A stretch of 64,000 nucleotides of DNA, taken from sequence record NC_007023.1; one strand, 5' to 3'. This DNA is from Escherichia phage RB43. The position numbers and the translations under genes are program-made. The first letter of the stretch is position 1, and each line of letters begins with the position of its first letter. The notes under the pieces were generated by a model, which saw only the letters and a program-made list of their open reading frames with translations, searched no databases and was not told the DNA's origin. This document shows positions 8,762 through 60,112 of the stretch, in pieces.

Positions 8762-9376
8762 ATGATATACACAAAACTTAAAGAATGGTTGCCTCATGAT
8801 CTATACGTTGAGTATGTTGATATCATAACGGCTTCACCAAAAACAGAATACACAGAAAAACATCATATATTACCACGATCGCTATTTCCTGAATTTGAAA
8901 ACGACCCAGACAACTTAGTAGAACTTGATGTGATGAAGCATTTGATGGCTCATAGGACATTAGCAAAAACCAATGACCATAAAATGATTCTCGCGTTTTT
9001 CATGATGTTCACCTACGAACATAAACGTTATTCTACATTGTCAGAACAGGAACAACAATTTATTCTTGAAGAAAAGACAAAAGCCCGTGAAGCAATGCGT
9101 GTTGTTAAAAAAGAACAGATGAAAGGTAAATATGATGGTGAAAACAACCCATTTTACGGAAAACGACATACTGATGAATTTAAGAAAATGATGGGTTCTG
9201 TGCATAAAGGTAAGAAGTTATCACCAGAACATTTAGCAAATCTCGTTGCCGCACACAAAGGCAAAAAACGAGAAAAAGTAAAATGCCCCCATTGTGGGAT
9301 AATGTGCGCCGCTAATACAGCAAAGCGCTGGCACTTCGATAACTGTAAGTCTGGACTTGTCCAGCAGGGGGATTAG
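8762..9376 (+). CDS. free-standing HNH homing endonuclease with NUMOD-like repeats (start could be upstream ATG 8714)
   Basis: HHILPRSLFPEF...NLVELDVMKHLMAH HNH motif plus repeated NPFYGKRHT / GKKLSPEHL / GKKREK NUMOD3-like motifs; RBS AGAGGA before ATG 8762; sits between gp14 and gp15 where T4 has no gene. Confidence 0.75.
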   Translation: MIYTKLKEWLPHDLYVEYVDIITASPKTEYTEKHHILPRSLFPEFENDPDNLVELDVMKHLMAHRTLAKTNDHKMILAFFMMFTYEHKRYSTLSEQEQQFILEEKTKAREAMRVVKKEQMKGKYDGENNPFYGKRHTDEFKKMMGSVHKGKKLSPEHLANLVAAHKGKKREKVKCPHCGIMCAANTAKRWHFDNCKSGLVQQGD

Positions 9377-24875: not shown

Positions 24876-25796
24876 ATGAAAATTGATTACGAATTGGTAG
24901 AAGGGTTCCGTGCTCTGCCTACTAAAGAACAGAAAGGCGCACTGGCTGACTACGCTCAAAGCACCTTTGAAGTAAAATTGAACAAACAAAAATCATTCGA
25001 TAACATGCTGGCTGATCTGGAAGCTGCTGTACCAGCGGAAGAAGAAAAACCGGAACTGCTGATTGATTCCCCAGAATCCGCGATCGTTTCGTACACTGGT
25101 AGCGTTGCAATGGATGAACCTGTTGTTAACGCTCCGAACATTCCTGATGTTGTTGTCGATGTGTCGCAGGACTTTATGGATTACGTCAAAGACGTTGCGC
25201 CGGAAGTGGCTGATCAGATTAAATTAGTCCCTGATGTTGTTGTCGATGTGTCGCAGGACTTTATGGATTACGTCAAAGACGTTGCGCCGGAAGTGGCTGA
25301 TCAGATTAAATTAGTCCCTGATGTTGTTGTCGATGTGTCGCAGGACTTTATGGATTACGTCAAAGACGTTGCGCCGGAAGTGGCTGATCAGATTAAATTA
25401 GTCCCTGATGTTGTTGTCGATGTGTCGCAGGACTTTATGGATTACGTCAAAGACGTTGCGCCGGAAGTGGCTGATCAGATTAAATTAGTCCCTGATGTTG
25501 TAGAAGCGTCTGTAACCGCTTCTGACGAGTCCAAAGCTGATATGGCATGGTTGGACGGGTTTAGCCCTACAATCGTTCTGATGGGGCGTAGCGCTCGTTC
25601 TAACGGCTATTATACGTGTCCCTGGTGGATCTACGATTGGATTAAGAAAAATCCAGATTGGTACAAAGATCCTGACCAGTGTCCACACTACAGCGCACGG
25701 GATACCCTGAAATCGCTGGTGTACTACATCAAACGTGATGGTCAAGTTACTGTGCGTGAAACGCGCAACAGCAGTTTCGATACCTTCAAATTTTAG
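24876..25796 (+). CDS. Hoc-like capsid decoration protein with C-terminal capsid-binding domain and internal 4 x 29-aa perfect tandem repeat
   Basis: C-terminal ...YYTCPWWIYDWIKKNPDWYKDPD...RDGQVTVRETRN resembles T4 Hoc capsid-binding domain (AYIWCGWWVMDEI...GKDW...DVQESRNGY) as recalled; location next to uvsW as for T4 hoc; RBS GGAGA. Confidence 0.6.
   Translation: MKIDYELVEGFRALPTKEQKGALADYAQSTFEVKLNKQKSFDNMLADLEAAVPAEEEKPELLIDSPESAIVSYTGSVAMDEPVVNAPNIPDVVVDVSQDFMDYVKDVAPEVADQIKLVPDVVVDVSQDFMDYVKDVAPEVADQIKLVPDVVVDVSQDFMDYVKDVAPEVADQIKLVPDVVVDVSQDFMDYVKDVAPEVADQIKLVPDVVEASVTASDESKADMAWLDGFSPTIVLMGRSARSNGYYTCPWWIYDWIKKNPDWYKDPDQCPHYSARDTLKSLVYYIKRDGQVTVRETRNSSFDTFKF
25143..25501 (+). repeat. 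perfect 87-bp direct tandem repeat, 4 full copies plus 11-bp partial, in-frame inside the Hoc-like gene
   Basis: Copies start at 25143, 25230, 25317, 25404; each encodes PDVVVDVSQDFMDYVKDVAPEVADQIKLV. Confidence 0.95.
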
Positions 25797-25896: not shown

Positions 25897-26214
25897 ATGA
25901 AAAACGAAATGATGAAAAATGCTTATTATCCGGTTTTGTTTGTTTGGGGCGGGGAAAAAGTTAAAACTATCGTTAATTCACAAGCTCCGTATTACACTGT
26001 AGGTGAAGCACTTCGTCACGCCGCCGAAGCTGATTATCCGGTATCATTTGAACCTGGTTATGCTCGTTGGAACGGTTCTAAGTGGGTTGCTGATAGCTGG
26101 GACAACTACGAAGAATCAAGAATGGAACATGATCCTGATTATGTTTCTCGCCAGATGGAAGCGCACATGATTGCAGACCGTCGCCTCGATAATGAAGCTC
26201 GCGGATTCTGGTAA
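25897..26214 (+). CDS. hypothetical protein
   Basis: 105 aa ORF with RBS GAAGGAAAG; followed by hairpin terminator. Confidence 0.5.
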   Translation: MKNEMMKNAYYPVLFVWGGEKVKTIVNSQAPYYTVGEALRHAAEADYPVSFEPGYARWNGSKWVADSWDNYEESRMEHDPDYVSRQMEAHMIADRRLDNEARGFW

Positions 26215-26220
26215 AATTTA

Positions 26221-26243
26221 AGGGGGCGAAAGCCTCCTTTTTT
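26221..26243 (+). terminator. rho-independent terminator
   Basis: GGGGGCGAAAGCCTCC hairpin followed by TTTTTT. Confidence 0.5.
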
Positions 26244-26287
26244 ATAGGTGAATAATGAATAAATAAAATCATGAATGTCTGAAAGAT

Positions 26288-26824
26288 TTGTCAGATGGTA
26301 AAGAAATCGAGAACGTTATATTCCTCGATATTGACGGCGTGTTAAATAATATGCGCTCTATGAAATTCGGTGAACATATGGACATCGAATGTGCGCGACA
26401 TCTACGCCGGATCGTCAACCATGCAAATTGTGATATCGTTGTTTCTTCAACGTGGCGCATTGGGAACACGACACACACCCTACGCGAAATCCTGTACCCC
26501 TGGGGCTTGTATCGCGTTATCGGTCGAACCTGTAGCAACATGGTTGGTAATTGTGTGCGTGGTGATGAAATAAAGGCGTGGATCGATACGTTCGGATGTA
26601 AGAACTACATGATCCTTGATGATGATTGTGATATGTTGCCAGAACAAAAAGATCACTTCGTCAGAACAGATCCTGAAATCGGGCTTACCGAAGAACAATC
26701 AACCTTTGCGATCCGCAATATATTTGGAGTAACAACCCCGTTTTGTCCTGAATGCAACGGCTATGGGCGCGTGAACCAATACGATAAATGCGGTAGCTGT
26801 AACGGTAAAAAATTGCGTCTATAA
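26288..26824 (+). CDS. HAD-superfamily phosphatase with C-terminal Cys-rich zinc-ribbon (apparent TTG start)
   Basis: N-terminal FLDIDGVLN (HAD motif I), SSTWR, ILDDD motifs; C-terminal CPECNGYG...CGSCNGKK; no in-frame ATG upstream of motif I. Confidence 0.6.
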   Translation: MSDGKEIENVIFLDIDGVLNNMRSMKFGEHMDIECARHLRRIVNHANCDIVVSSTWRIGNTTHTLREILYPWGLYRVIGRTCSNMVGNCVRGDEIKAWIDTFGCKNYMILDDDCDMLPEQKDHFVRTDPEIGLTEEQSTFAIRNIFGVTTPFCPECNGYGRVNQYDKCGSCNGKKLRL

Positions 26825-26827
26825 ATA
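26820..26827 (+). promoter_or_regulatory. T4-type late promoter -10 box (TATAAATA) upstream of second Hoc-like gene
   Basis: Exact TATAAATA about 25 nt upstream of ATG 26852. Confidence 0.5.
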
Positions 26828-26851
26828 CAGAAAAACTAAGAGGTTTCAATA

Positions 26852-27355
26852 ATGGCTACTGAAAAATGGACTACGGTTCACCCTATCCCGTGGCGTAACA
26901 CCAGCTTTACCTATCTTCCGTGGTGGATCTATGATATCATCGTTGCTGCTAATACGGCAGGTGGAGATTGGCGTGATTACGCAGAAGAAAAATATGCGAA
27001 AGAATTCGTCACGCTGAAACAAGCATACATCGACTAGACCGATGTTGATTTCATCGAATCTCGCAACGGCTACCTGTACAAACTCAGTGATTTTACTCCG
27101 GCTGATCCGGTTGTTACTATCACCCCGAAAACTGCCCCTGCTGATTTTAAAGTAGGCGATCCTGACCTTGCTGCAACCGATCTGTTTACTATCGATCCGA
27201 GCGGTACGGCTATGACTCTGACTGTGGATTCCTCTGGTCATGCGTCGATCGTTGGCGGTAAACTCCATGCTATAAGCGCTGGTGATGTTGTTGTAACGGC
27301 GACCTCCGGTTCTGTTACTGCAAACCTGACTGTAAATGTTAAAGTTGCTCCATAA
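26852..27355 (+). CDS. second Hoc-like gene: N-terminal capsid-binding domain interrupted by in-frame TAG (27035-27037), then Big_2-type Ig-like domain
   Basis: ATG 26852 to TAG gives 61 aa (VHPIPWRNTSFTYLPWWIYDII...GGDW...); same frame stays open to TAA 27353-27355 encoding ...FIESRNGYLYKL... plus Big_2-like domain; homology to Hoc spans the TAG. Confidence 0.5.
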
Positions 27356-27370
27356 CTAAGAAGGTAAAAC

Positions 27371-27871
27371 ATGCTTCTATTCGAATTCAATGATGTATTC
27401 GCGAAGTTTAGTGATGCAATTCAGGCAAAATTCGGCAAACGTCCCGAAAACATGACAGAAACAGAATACAATACTGCTGTTTCGTCCCTGGTTCGTACAG
27501 ATTTCTATGAAAAGCTGGCGATCGAGGTGTTGGGCTGGGACATGATGAAATGGGGTATGACTTATCGCGATCGCGAAGTTGGTTTCATTCTCGTCAATGA
27601 GGTTAAAAGCCCTCTGTGGGTAAACAACCAAAAAGTTGCATACATGGATAAGGTGTGTGCGGAAATGGGTATTGTGCGTCTGGATTTCTGGACGTGTAAG
27701 GATCTGAATGAACTGAAAGGTCATGCTTATCGTTGCCCTCTGATTTCTCGCAATGAGAAACATCGTCAAGCATGGGATAGCGCTGGCAAGTATCGCAGTG
27801 TATATCTGAATGATGACATGAACATCACTATTCAGGATGTGAACCGCGCCTTTGCGGATTACACACCATAA
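27371..27871 (+). CDS. hypothetical protein
   Basis: 166 aa ORF, RBS AAGAAGG, followed by terminator. Confidence 0.55.
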   Translation: MLLFEFNDVFAKFSDAIQAKFGKRPENMTETEYNTAVSSLVRTDFYEKLAIEVLGWDMMKWGMTYRDREVGFILVNEVKSPLWVNNQKVAYMDKVCAEMGIVRLDFWTCKDLNELKGHAYRCPLISRNEKHRQAWDSAGKYRSVYLNDDMNITIQDVNRAFADYTP

Positions 27872-27878
27872 ACAAAAA

Positions 27879-27906
27879 AGGGAACCGCAATGGTTCCCTT
27901 TCTTTT
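27879..27906. terminator. bidirectional rho-independent terminator
   Basis: GGGAACCGCAATGGTTCCC hairpin flanked by A-run and T-run; between convergent genes. Confidence 0.7.
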
Positions 27907-28367
27907 TACAGCTTTCTAACTTCTTTCAACGCTTCTTCTTTGCTACCAACGAAGAGGATCGCTTTTCCTCCCGCTTTCCTGAAAGGTAGTACCGCTTTCG
28001 CTCTGTCATCGAACAGTACACCCTGACCTGCATAGGCTGCTTTTTCGCCGCTGCTTTTGGTGTAGTGGAATTCAGGCAGATATCCTAACAGTTTAACAAG
28101 CGCTTTGCGTTTTTGTTCTGCAACTTCTTCGGAATTGTATTTACCGACACTGGTCAAGATCGCAACCTCGCCTAATGTTCTCATATGGCAGAACAGCGCA
28201 ACACCTTCTTCAATCGGTTTTAAATTTTCGTAGAAGTCGGTTTTAGATATTGCCTCTTTTGCCTTTTTGAGTTCATCCTGTGGCATTCTTGCTGGATCAC
28301 CATACATCGGTATGAAAGAACCTTCCCAATCAAACAGTACACCATCCATATCAAAGAAAAATTTCAT
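27906..28367 (-). CDS. HAD-family phosphatase, 5'(3')-deoxyribonucleotidase-like
   Basis: Starts MKFFFDMDGVLFDW (HAD motif I of the 5'-nucleotidase type); ...VLFDDR... near C-terminus; RBS GAGGAA. Confidence 0.6.
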   Translation of the reverse strand: MKFFFDMDGVLFDWEGSFIPMYGDPARMPQDELKKAKEAISKTDFYENLKPIEEGVALFCHMRTLGEVAILTSVGKYNSEEVAEQKRKALVKLLGYLPEFHYTKSSGEKAAYAGQGVLFDDRAKAVLPFRKAGGKAILFVGSKEEALKEVRKL

Positions 28368-29362: not shown

Positions 29363-30283
29363 ATGAAACTTGAATTAAACCGCTTCATCAAAGCCGCTGC
29401 TGCTGGCGACCAGTCAAAATACAAATCCCGTCGCGATACCCTGATTGACGATTTCTGTAATCTGCTGGGGTTCAAGCGCTGGCATACTCCGTCTATGCGT
29501 CCAGACTGTGATCCAAAATGGGATTACTTCAAATGGACTCCCCGCGATCGTGGTTATGTCGATAACGTCCGCGTAATGACATTCACTCATATGTACGCAA
29601 ATGCAATAATAGAAGTTGCCAAACGTAATAATTCTACGTACCCGAACGGGTGGAAGGTTGCAGAAGTCATTGAAACCCTGATGCAACTGCGCCGTGAATA
29701 TAAAGCTGGAATGATGATGCAACTGCGCCGTGAATATAAAGCTGGAATGATACGTAAATTGGAAGAACAATCCGAAAGACATGAATATAAAGAATGGTCT
29801 ATCGTCGCAAAATATCTGCTGAACATCACCTATTCGGTTTTCTGTCGCTTCGGAACAAAAGAAATCGGGTTCGGTTCTCATGATATCATTGCAGAAGCCC
29901 GTCATCGCCTGACATACGCGATCCTGAAAATTCAAAATTCCGGTGGTCTTGTTCTGGCTGCATTCTGTGATGAAATTGTGTACTACGGCGATCAGGTTGA
30001 AGTTGAAGGTGTTCACCACGAAAAATTCAACAAACTTGTGTTCGGACAATATAACAGCTATTCATACGGAAACGATATCCGCGTGATGATGCACCCGCGT
30101 ATTATGCTGGATATGGAAGGGTGGGAACCTGGACACGGGATCGGTGATATCGAAAGCCAGCGTGAACGCCGTGTTCGTTCTGTCGCAAAAGCTCGCGAAT
30201 TGATGACGGGTAGCCTTACTGATTACCTGTTCAGAACAAAAGAAGACGTTGAAAAAGAATTTGTTGACTTGTCGGGCGAATAG
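29363..30283 (+). CDS. hypothetical protein (contains 12-aa in-frame tandem duplication)
   Basis: 306 aa ORF; LMQLRREYKAGM duplicated. Confidence 0.55.
   Translation: MKLELNRFIKAAAAGDQSKYKSRRDTLIDDFCNLLGFKRWHTPSMRPDCDPKWDYFKWTPRDRGYVDNVRVMTFTHMYANAIIEVAKRNNSTYPNGWKVAEVIETLMQLRREYKAGMMMQLRREYKAGMIRKLEEQSERHEYKEWSIVAKYLLNITYSVFCRFGTKEIGFGSHDIIAEARHRLTYAILKIQNSGGLVLAAFCDEIVYYGDQVEVEGVHHEKFNKLVFGQYNSYSYGNDIRVMMHPRIMLDMEGWEPGHGIGDIESQRERRVRSVAKARELMTGSLTDYLFRTKEDVEKEFVDLSGE
29681..29752 (+). repeat. 36-bp direct tandem duplication (2 copies)
   Basis: ATGCAACTGCGCCGTGAATATAAAGCTGGAATG repeated with 36-bp period. Confidence 0.9.
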
Positions 30284-44435: not shown

Positions 44436-44627
44436 ATGAAAATCAAAAATACTGCTACTGAAAATCTTTGCAACGAAATCGCTGCGACCTACTGGAAAGA
44501 AGGTCATCCAAAGGCAATGAAGGATTTTCAAAAGTGGTGTGACACCCAGAAATTATCAAAATGGGAATACATCGTAATCGTGGAACGGATCAGAGAACTG
44601 ATCCTTGATAAGAAAGGTATAAAATGA
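44436..44627 (+). CDS. hypothetical protein
   Basis: 63 aa ORF preceded by a GC hairpin (44404-44431). Confidence 0.45.
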   Translation: MKIKNTATENLCNEIAATYWKEGHPKAMKDFQKWCDTQKLSKWEYIVIVERIRELILDKKGIK

Positions 44628-45154
44628 TTCAGCTTACATCATACACCAACGCGATCAACAGCCTGTTCCCAGAAGGGACAGAAGCACGGCTTAATTTACA
44701 GGCTGCTGTGATCAAAAACATCGTTGATAGCGTTGTCGGTAAGAAGGTGACGGAAGAAATCGATAACTGTATTGTCACCCATGTTAGCGCGATGATGCCA
44801 CCAAAGCATGAGATCGAAAAGATTGTTCAAAATCAATTTGCCGATTACATTCAGAAACGCTACACATACAGCAATGTGTTTGATGCTAATTACAGTGGCA
44901 TTCGTCAGATTAAAGACGTGATCACCGAAAACGTTAAACAGCAATGCGCTAACCTGATTGAATCTATCAAACTTGATGCGATCGACAGCGCAAGCAAAAA
45001 CCTCAAAGAAGGCGAAGAAGCGTTTATTGCTCGTGTAACCAAAAATCTAGAAGTGACGGTTCGTAAAGAAATCATCGCTCGCGTGAACACCCAGTTCCCG
45101 CAAATCATCGACGAAGCAATCAAAGCCCGTCTGTTCCCAGAGGATAAAGGCTGA
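44624..45154 (+). CDS. hypothetical protein
   Basis: 176 aa ORF, ATGA overlaps on both sides. Confidence 0.5.
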   Translation: MIQLTSYTNAINSLFPEGTEARLNLQAAVIKNIVDSVVGKKVTEEIDNCIVTHVSAMMPPKHEIEKIVQNQFADYIQKRYTYSNVFDANYSGIRQIKDVITENVKQQCANLIESIKLDAIDSASKNLKEGEEAFIARVTKNLEVTVRKEIIARVNTQFPQIIDEAIKARLFPEDKG

Positions 45155-54773: not shown

Positions 54774-57002
54774 TTGGAGTGCTTCGAATCTCCGTTATTG
54801 CCGTCAGGTGGACAAATAACGTATAAAGGCTGGCGTATCTATACCGAAAATGATCGCCCGACAGCGGAAGATATAGGGGCGTTGTCTCTTGCTAATGGTG
54901 GTACTGTTAACAATGATACGACATTCACGAAAAATATAACCGTAGGCGTTAATGCTGTTGCGGGTGCATTGTTTTCTAGATCGTACATCGATATTACTCG
55001 CGCCGGAAGTGAACCAAACATTGTTTTTCGTCGTTCTGATGTTACTACTACGCCGACGACAGAACAAGCCCTTTTAATACTTAATGCTATGAATGGGGCT
55101 AACGTTACTGCGGGTACGTTTAATATTCATGCGCGTACTGATGGCGGGAACAAAGTTTATATTACTGCGTATAAATCGGGATCACAAAATACATCATTAA
55201 CGCTAGATTCGCAACTTCAACAGGTAACGGTAGAACAAGGCACTTTCCGTGTCACTGGAAATACTGTTCTTGCTGGTGCAACTGCAACCACGTTAAACGT
55301 TACTGGGGCGTTGACTGCACAAACGGTTACTCCGGCGAACTGGCAAAATCACGATGTTCGTTATATGACGGGTATTCCGACCAACATGCAGGGAAATAGC
55401 CTAAGCGCTGCTGTTGTTACCGAAAAGAATGATGTTCTTTCCGTAAACGGTAACTTGGTTGATGGTCCTTATGGCGATAATACCTACGTGGGCCAGGTGG
55501 TAAACTATCGCCGCACGTCGAATGCGAGCAACTCGATCACTCAGTTCTTCCTTGATGGTACTGCTTTCCATATCCGTACAGGTTCTGGATCTCCTGGTGC
55601 TTGGTCTTGGACGGGTGGAGGTGCTAACGGTTGGCGTAAAGTGTATGATGAAAGTCACAAACCTACTCCGGCAGAAATCGGTGCATTGAAAAATACTACC
55701 GATACATTGAACGGTGAATTGGGTGTTATCGGTGATGTTTCTTTAAAATCACCTACAGGTCGTCATATTAAATTCGTGTATACGAAAAATGATGGTACTC
55801 AGATTGTTGATGGGTTTATCTACAAAGACGGACCTGATGCTGGTAATCGTCGTTCCGGTATTCGCATTAACTGTTATACGCCGAATAAAGAAACTGGTAA
55901 TGGGGAGTTTTCCGGTGAATTCATTTTCAACGAAAATGGTAGCTTTATTCTTCCTCCTGGCGGCACAATATATCAGGAAGGTATAACACCAGGTCTTTAC
56001 GCAAACGTTATATTAAGTGCCGCTGCTGCTGGTACTACATCATACCTTCGTAAATTCCGAGGTGGTGGCCCTGATACAATATGGCATGAGGCAGTTCGAT
56101 CTAACGTATACGCTTTGGGAACTGGCGCGACATATTCAAATGAAGTAATGACTCTCGATGACACTGGTAATCTGTCTATCAAAGGAACCCCGTCAACATC
56201 AACGAACGTTTTCCTGGATAGTGACGCAAAATCTGTTATTTGGTTTAGACATTCCGGCGGTGCGGAAAAAGGCGTTGTGTGGGCAGAGAGTGATGGTAAA
56301 TTAAAATTACGCGCAAATGCTGGCGGTTCTGCTACTTATGAGTTTTATGCTGGTATGATACACTCACAATACCCCGTATCAGGTACAGATCGCGGTATTA
56401 TTCGCGGTACTCCTGATGGGGGTGGTTGGGATCAATGGCGTGAACGTTCTGCTGCTGTATCTGTTGATGTTCCCGGTGTCAATAATAGCGCATACAGTAT
56501 CTGGAAAGCAACTTCATGGAATAACACCTATGTTGCTGCAATTGGATGTTCATATGCCCGAACTTTACACCAGGCGCCGGCCCGTGTTCGTCTGGTTCTG
56601 CAAAGTTCTGTTGCTTTCTACTTCGATGGTGATGGTAGCTTTAGTACAAGTACAGGGAACATCACGGCAGGTAATAGTGGTTACTTTAACGATGTGTATA
56701 TTCGTTCTGATGAAAAATTGAAAAGCAATTTCAATAAGATTGAAAACGCATTGGATAAGGTTGAACTGTTGAATGGTTTGACTTATGATAAAGCAAGCTA
56801 TATCGGTGGCGAAACTGTTAAGCGCGAAGCTGGTTTGATCGCACAGGAACTGCAAAAGGTATTACCGGAAGCCGTATCTGTTGGTAAGGATACCAAAGAA
56901 AACGAAGTGCTTGTTATTTCGCCAACTGCAACTATTGCATTACTGGTCGAAGCAATCAAAGAACTGCGTGAAGAAGTAAGGGAACTCAAATCCCGACAAT
57001 AA
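54774..57002 (+). CDS. long tail fibre distal subunit paralogue A (gp36/gp37-like) with C-terminal intramolecular chaperone domain; conserved N-terminus is in another frame from ATG 54730
   Basis: ORF track start is TTG 54774; upstream ATG 54730 frame encodes MADLKLGTTLGGAAIWSASN (gp36-type N-terminus) then stops 54819; body has GG.PDTIWHEAVR and C-terminal ...DVYIRSDEKLKSNF...GREAGLIAQELQKVLPEAV (S74-type chaperone). Confidence 0.7.
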   Translation: MECFESPLLPSGGQITYKGWRIYTENDRPTAEDIGALSLANGGTVNNDTTFTKNITVGVNAVAGALFSRSYIDITRAGSEPNIVFRRSDVTTTPTTEQALLILNAMNGANVTAGTFNIHARTDGGNKVYITAYKSGSQNTSLTLDSQLQQVTVEQGTFRVTGNTVLAGATATTLNVTGALTAQTVTPANWQNHDVRYMTGIPTNMQGNSLSAAVVTEKNDVLSVNGNLVDGPYGDNTYVGQVVNYRRTSNASNSITQFFLDGTAFHIRTGSGSPGAWSWTGGGANGWRKVYDESHKPTPAEIGALKNTTDTLNGELGVIGDVSLKSPTGRHIKFVYTKNDGTQIVDGFIYKDGPDAGNRRSGIRINCYTPNKETGNGEFSGEFIFNENGSFILPPGGTIYQEGITPGLYANVILSAAAAGTTSYLRKFRGGGPDTIWHEAVRSNVYALGTGATYSNEVMTLDDTGNLSIKGTPSTSTNVFLDSDAKSVIWFRHSGGAEKGVVWAESDGKLKLRANAGGSATYEFYAGMIHSQYPVSGTDRGIIRGTPDGGGWDQWRERSAAVSVDVPGVNNSAYSIWKATSWNNTYVAAIGCSYARTLHQAPARVRLVLQSSVAFYFDGDGSFSTSTGNITAGNSGYFNDVYIRSDEKLKSNFNKIENALDKVELLNGLTYDKASYIGGETVKREAGLIAQELQKVLPEAVSVGKDTKENEVLVISPTATIALLVEAIKELREEVRELKSRQ

Positions 57003-60052: not shown

Positions 60053-60112
60053 ATATGTTCGGGGGTTGGGAATCCCCGACCGAGGGTATAAAATGGCGCT
60101 ATACAAGATAAA

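Follow-up and report, generated by a model that had tools for sequence, protein, structure and literature searches.

The stretch of DNA that we analysed, referred to here as the window, comprises 64,000 nt of the genome of Escherichia phage RB43 (NC_007023.1/AY967407), as published in 2005, and the locus of interest lies on its plus strand between 26820 and 27355. A T4-type late promoter consensus, TATAAATA, is read directly at 26820-26827, and a Shine-Dalgarno sequence, AAGAGG, is read directly at 26838-26843, 8 nt 5' of an ATG at 26852. This ATG opens a hoc-like gene whose codons 1-61 (26852-27034) encode the first two thirds of a Hoc-type capsid-binding domain. At codon 62 the frame is interrupted by an in-frame TAG (27035-27037), after which it stays open for 105 sense codons (27038-27352) up to a TAA at 27353-27355, also read directly, which is the true stop of a gene of 167 codons. 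Codons 63-167 encode the last third of the capsid-binding domain, including an ESRNG loop (codons 69-73, 27056-27070) that lies 3' of the TAG, and then, after a linker, a single Big_2-like Ig domain (about 27104-27352). When the sequence was re-read, the coordinates given in a preliminary description of this DNA for the late box, the ATG, the TAG and the TAA all proved exact. The late box is a consensus match only, and by analogy with T4 late promoters it would function as a promoter; it is invariant in a four-way DNA alignment of the window with phages RB43-GVA, RB16 and Miller. The Shine-Dalgarno sequence is conserved in the same alignment, and the Miller annotation places a ribosome-binding site at the equivalent position. 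The preliminary description had also claimed that the part downstream of the TAG has no start of its own giving 60 aa or more, and this holds, since the first in-frame ATG, GTG or TTG past the TAG is ATG 27212 and yields 47 aa only. The split of the gene is already visible in the public annotation of NC_007023, in which the 61-aa piece is named 'Hoc large outer capsid' (YP_239213.1/AAX78759.1) and the 47-aa tail is RB43ORF238w (YP_239214.1).

We compared the locus with other phage genomes by a megablast search using positions 26200-28000 of the window. The closest match, at 99.8% identity, was RB43-GVA (HE981739.1, HE858210.2), an independently maintained RB43 stock that was resequenced by Illumina; IME-CF2 and GuL6 matched at 98.4%, RB16 at 97.7% and Miller at 92%. 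RB43-GVA, RB16 and Miller each have a single uninterrupted CDS of 504 nt here, to which the RB16 and Miller records give the label hoc or 'Hoc-like head decoration', and many of the 211 matching phage records annotate an intact Hoc-like or capsid decoration gene. The 105-codon frame that begins right after the stop is not a product of chance: it makes up the remainder of a gene of 167 codons, which every relative examined has intact. The window gene is the same gene as that for the Hoc-like protein of the RB43/RB16 group of Pseudotevenvirus (RB16 YP_003858524.1, RB43-GVA CCL97698.1, PHROG 11091), with which it shares its 167 codons and the order of the locus (uvsW - inh - two ORFs - hoc-like), and its DNA is 99.6% identical to that of the RB43-GVA copy. 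It departs from the group at two codons, with TAG for TAT at codon 62 and GTC for GAC at codon 53. The window copy thus has the binding domain with its ESRNG loop and the Ig-like domain of a Hoc-like protein, but not an uninterrupted frame, which the TAG breaks at codon 62.

A comparison of homologues at the position of the stop, which had been proposed as a check in the preliminary description, returned a sense codon in each case. In the four-way DNA alignment, codon 62 is TAT (Tyr) in RB43-GVA, RB16 and Miller. Exactly two differences separate the window from RB43-GVA within the hoc-like gene: one at 27037, where a single T-to-G difference gives TAG in place of TAT, and one at 27009, where the window has a T (GTC, Val53) and the three relatives have an A (GAC, Asp53). 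RB16 and Miller side with RB43-GVA at both positions, so that D53V is a second private change, 28 nt 5' of 27037. Across the wider family, 24 of 25 homologue clusters have Tyr62, Asp53 is nearly invariant, and no stop or break at codon 62 occurs among the 25 clusters. The exact 61-aa and 47-aa products were found among public assemblies only in the RB43 record itself.

For queries of profile and structure databases, we used the window protein repaired to the RB43-GVA sequence (Tyr62, Asp53). The repaired protein matched PHROG 11091, 'Hoc-like head decoration', from end to end (E=2e-112), and the portion encoded by codons 63-167 matched positions 63-167 of the same family (E=1.5e-63). Residues 6-82 of the repaired protein matched PHROG 1149, the main Hoc family, at its C-terminal end (positions 1066-1144 of 1150, E=1.4e-23), so that the suggested HMM search of the whole protein for Hoc found both families. 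In a phmmer search against the PDB, residues 8-76 aligned with residues 293-362 of T4 Hoc (5vf3_Z, E=9.9e-10), and in a structure comparison the fold of the binding domain of a close homologue matched 8t1x_X. These matches bear out the earlier proposal that the N-terminal part is homologous to the capsid-binding domain of T4 Hoc. Tyr62 aligns with Tyr348 of T4 Hoc, which confirms that the stop sits inside a conserved domain, at a tyrosine that is present in T4 Hoc as well. The ESRNG motif at residues 69-73 aligns with Glu355-Gly359 of T4 Hoc, and the family alignment shows no variation at E69, R71, N72 and G73 and almost none at S70. In T4 the ESRNG loop lies at the centre of the gp23 hexamer, and mutations in the loop impair binding (Fokine et al. 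2023, PMC10385173).

The C-terminal part had been described as a Big_2-type Ig-like domain, a claim that stood at the level of fold and not at the level of the window sequence itself. A Pfam scan of both halves and of the joined window protein gave no match at E<=1, and among 26 family members Pfam Big_2 weakly matched six, with a best E of 2e-4. We then turned to the structure of an intact homologue, P0003, which is 92% identical and was modelled by AlphaFold with a pLDDT of 84.7. The C-terminal domain of P0003 is all-beta in this model, and its best matches in the PDB are Big_2 domains, namely 7quz, the C-terminal domain of lambda gpV (2l04) and LigA/LigB. The predicted structure thus supports an Ig-like domain that would be of Big_2 type by fold. 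The claimed inversion of the domain order relative to T4 Hoc was upheld, with the binding domain first and the Ig domain last. T4 Hoc (PDB 5vf3, 8t1x, 8t9r) likewise has the homologous binding domain, the ESRNG loop, Ig-like display domains and a late promoter, but its three Ig domains are N-terminal and precede a C-terminal binding domain, at about residues 281-376, in a protein of 376 aa, whereas the window gene encodes the binding domain followed by one Big_2-like domain in 167 aa. In the family alignment the N-terminal binding domain occurs alone or together with one or two Big_2-like domains or an Ig_3 domain, and the DNA of the binding domain also matches versions joined to an SGNH hydrolase in PG7, CC31 and Pet-CM3-4. 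In the second Hoc-like protein of Enterobacter phage PG7 (511 aa), a Hoc binding domain at the N-terminus is joined to a GDSL hydrolase at the C-terminus (Fokine et al. 2023, PMC10385173, section 3.6). This PG7 protein resembles the window protein in having the Hoc capsid-binding domain at the N-terminus and a cargo at the C-terminus, and differs in the cargo, a GDSL/SGNH hydrolase in PG7 and an Ig-like domain here. The inverted order is therefore not new, since an N-terminal Hoc domain with a swappable C-terminal cargo has already been noted for PG7.

The preliminary description called this gene the second Hoc-like gene of the stretch, which the neighbouring genes do not support. The ORF at 24876-25796, considered as a first Hoc, was rejected as such: it is a homologue of Inh, the prohead-protease inhibitor/minor head protein (PHROG 1051, E=1.4e-74), and its similarity to the Hoc binding domain is weak. 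The C-terminus of Inh (25590-25793, residues about 240-306; RSNGYYTCPWWIYDWI...VRETRNSSF) weakly matches PHROG 1149 at positions 1074-1134 (E=1.6e-5), and in a pairwise BLASTP of Inh against the N-terminal domain of the Hoc-like protein only an RxxxxxxPWWIYD motif aligns (E=0.002). This resemblance suggests that Inh and Hoc may share a capsid-binding module, and it is probably the reason that Inh had been called Hoc-like. The inh gene also contains a repeat array at 25143-25501, with 4.1 perfect tandem copies of an 87-nt unit (29 aa, PDVVVDVSQDFMDYVKDVAPEVADQIKLV) in a protein of 306 aa; the Inh proteins of RB43-GVA, RB16 and Miller have a single copy of the unit and are 218-219 aa long. The array may have arisen by a real tandem amplification in the stock that was sequenced, or else it is an artefact of assembly. 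A second repeat lies at 29679-29751, where a perfect 36-nt tandem duplication (2.0 copies, with MQLRREYKAG repeated) falls in a 306-aa ORF (29363-30283) whose orthologues in RB16 and GuL6 are 15 nt shorter. This duplication is real, because the protein is identical in RB43-GVA.

Since the public RB43 record annotates both pieces of the hoc-like gene as CDSs, they could be read as two separate functional genes, one for a 61-aa protein and one for an Ig-domain protein that is 47 aa long or is started non-canonically. We consider this scarcely credible. The break falls inside a single folded domain, the 47-aa piece begins in the middle of the Ig domain and would lack its first strands, and such a split is found in no relative.

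A further reading, raised in the preliminary description, is that the UAG is subject to programmed readthrough or suppression, and so controls how much full-length protein, with its Ig domain on display, is made relative to a short N-terminal product. A system of this kind is known from phage Q-beta, in which the A1 protein is made by readthrough of a UGA; the stop of Q-beta is conserved, and the phage cannot do without the extension product. The likeness to Q-beta lies in a stop followed by a long in-frame extension that encodes a module of the virion surface. Unlike that of Q-beta, the stop in the window has no counterpart in any relative and falls within a folded domain. The 105 codons that stay open past the stop would suit readthrough, as would the base that follows it, which is an A; an A in this position makes for relatively weak termination in E. 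coli. Against readthrough, the stop is missing from every relative, including the sister isolate RB43-GVA, and the short product lacks the ESRNG capsid-contact loop and would have no obvious function. We also looked for the machinery that readthrough might use. ARAGORN found no tRNA in the 64-kb window, and for the whole RB43 genome one tRNA has been reported, Ile-CAU (Nolan et al. 2006, PMC1524935), so that the check for a tRNA with a CUA anticodon gave none in the window and none in that report. The stops of the 66 long ORFs in the window are TAA in 39 cases, TGA in 19 and TAG in eight; as TAG ends those eight ORFs normally, recoding of TAG across the genome was rejected. The other premature stop made by a substitution relative to RB43-GVA is a TAA, not a TAG. 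The 100 nt that begin at the TAG fold no better than shuffled sequences (z=-1.43), and no Rfam match was found in the region, on which grounds a readthrough-stimulating structure or a known RNA family was likewise rejected. Because the stop is not conserved, programmed readthrough is largely refuted, and we regard it as highly improbable.

In an alignment of the whole 64-kb window with RB43-GVA we counted 42 differences, and 1-nt indels account for 23 of them. RB16 and GuL6 served as outgroups for polarising the sites, which succeeded at 30 of the 42; the window carries the odd allele at 28 of these and RB43-GVA at two. One of the two is codon 100 of gp38, an experimentally established host-range mutation of RB43-GVA (PMC3157838; PMC3486835). 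As this mutation was recovered as derived in RB43-GVA, it served as a positive control and validated the polarisation. The differences are strongly clustered: 19 of the 42 have a neighbour no more than 30 nt away, whereas 20,000 simulated random placements gave 1.6 such sites on average and at most 12. Three of the clusters are triplets of compensating 1-nt indels, in which the frame is regained after a few codons. The gene for the gp18 tail sheath has three private 1-nt insertions within 67 nt (12993, 12999 and 13059), producing a 22-aa out-of-frame patch at which RB43-GVA, RB16 and GuL6 agree and share SEKIVARAKQIGTYPDISTGW. Such an insertion triplet is a hallmark of base-calling error. Another triplet of 1-nt indels gives a 6-aa patch in the nicotinamide phosphoribosyltransferase gene, and a triplet of 1-nt insertions at 56542-56577 gives a short scrambled patch near the C-terminus of gp36, the distal tail fibre. 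The same gp36 gene carries a private 1-nt deletion at 54790 that cuts off its conserved N-terminal 21 aa from the gene body, and a private 1-nt deletion at 60101 detaches the conserved initial 3 aa of holin t from the gene body. A DprA-like gene, nrdG and several ORFs are truncated by frameshifts in the window, and in total the differences affect about 17 genes, with the essential genes for gp18, gp36 and the holin among them. The 17 window-side substitutions, those that are not attributable to RB43-GVA, comprise 13 missense, two nonsense, one stop-loss and one synonymous change, with 13 transversions and four transitions. Neither purifying selection nor a mutation spectrum biased towards transitions has left a mark on them.

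The densest cluster of substitutions in the window consists of six private changes in 87 nt (44556-44642) across the junction of two small ORFs; all six alter an amino acid, and the window is the odd one out at six of six. At 9307, an A-to-C difference from RB43-GVA turns the TGA of the ORF after gene 14 into TGC, a stop-loss at a site that is not polarisable with the outgroups. A private T-to-A at 26265 changes codon 4 from TTA to TAA in the ORF just 5' of the hoc-like gene; the annotated start of this ORF in relatives corresponds to window position 26255, and in the window the ORF appears to start only at a TTG at 26288. This TAA is the second premature stop made by a substitution, and it lies within 800 nt of the TAG in the hoc-like gene. 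The only two differences derived in RB43-GVA, codon 65 of gp34 (49622) and codon 100 of gp38 (59825), are both in tail-fibre genes. The gp38 change, Q100K/R, is the published K-12 host-range mutation, and the Geneva stock may have adapted a second time through R65H in gp34. For residue 100 of gp38 the paper has Lys as the wild type and Arg in the gfp mutant, whereas HE981739.1 (gfp) reads AAA (Lys).

An Illumina sequence of RB43 from the Geneva stock has been reported to differ from the published genome at 107 nt or more, that is, by at least that number (Perrody et al. 2012, PMC3486835). The 42 differences in the window are presumably part of that set. Perrody et al. did not distinguish errors from mutations among the at least 107 differences (PMC3486835), and a literature search for an explicit statement of errors in the published RB43 record found only this count, with no attribution. 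The signs that would mark an artefact are present in the record: the variant is private, private indels and substitutions are clustered and break essential conserved genes, and there is no signature of selection. Because a viable stock could not plausibly carry such a load in essential genes, and purifying selection would be visible in real mutations, we read the pattern as one of patchy base-calling errors.

Two of the explanations put forward in the preliminary description therefore survive, a base-call error and a recent nonsense mutation. We favour the former, with a probability of roughly 0.8: the TAG would be a base-call error, in which a T was read as a G at 27037, in a locally poor stretch of the record. 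D53V, the A-to-T change at 27009, would likewise be a single-base miscall. Under a base-call error, 26852-27355 would be one late-expressed gene for a 167-aa Hoc-like head-decoration protein, and the real phage would most likely have TAT (Tyr62) and make the full-length protein. By analogy with T4 Hoc, the 167-aa protein would decorate the capsid, sitting at the centres of the gp23 hexamers by means of its ESRNG loop, with the Ig domain displayed outward as in T4 Hoc.

What speaks against an error is that RB43-GVA and the sequenced stock had been grown separately for years, and that some of their differences are real, at least that at Q100 of gp38. The TAG could accordingly be a genuine recent amber mutation (Tyr62 to stop) that arose in the sequenced stock, giving a spontaneous hoc-null allele of a probably dispensable decoration gene. 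The hoc gene of T4 is dispensable, so that a genuine amber allele would be tolerable in a laboratory stock. A TAG private to one lineage is what would be expected of a recent mutation, and D53V, a second private and non-conservative change, could reflect relaxed selection after inactivation of the gene. Such an allele would encode a 61-aa fragment that ends before the ESRNG loop and the final strands of the binding domain and would not bind capsids; the Ig domain would not be made, and the phage would survive because it does not need head decoration. Weighing against a genuine mutation are the dozens of private changes that would be impossible in a viable phage and that lower the prior for any one of them being real, the mere two polarisable changes gained by the RB43-GVA lineage in the same 64 kb, and the position of the TAG in a two-change cluster 28 nt wide, like the patchy and obvious errors elsewhere. 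We thus judge a genuine amber allele, together with the loss of capsid binding and of the Ig domain that it would entail, to be unlikely, if by no means negligible. A variant in which a genuine stock-specific TAG is combined with low-level natural readthrough of UAG, or with a suppressor host, would give sub-stoichiometric Ig decoration as an accidental dosage variant; we hold this to be very unlikely.

Preferring a base-call error, we regard the result mainly as a warning about data quality. RefSeq NC_007023 splits one hoc-like gene into 61-aa and 47-aa CDSs, and within this 64-kb stretch gp18, gp36, the holin, nrdG and other genes are garbled by some 40 private differences of one base each. 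Users who align RB43 proteins or predict their structures would do better to take the sequences of RB43-GVA (HE858210) or RB16; the alignment in Fokine et al. 2023 (PMC10385173) includes an 'RB43 Hoc'. A real TAG would amount to no more than the spontaneous loss of function of a decoration gene that the phage can probably do without. Relatives already have annotations for the 167-aa Hoc-like family, and its architecture has been described. The genuine biology at the locus is that of an N-terminal Hoc binding domain with an exchangeable cargo; across the family the cargo may be an SGNH hydrolase, an Ig_3 domain or Big_2-like domains, one or two in number, and it may also be missing.
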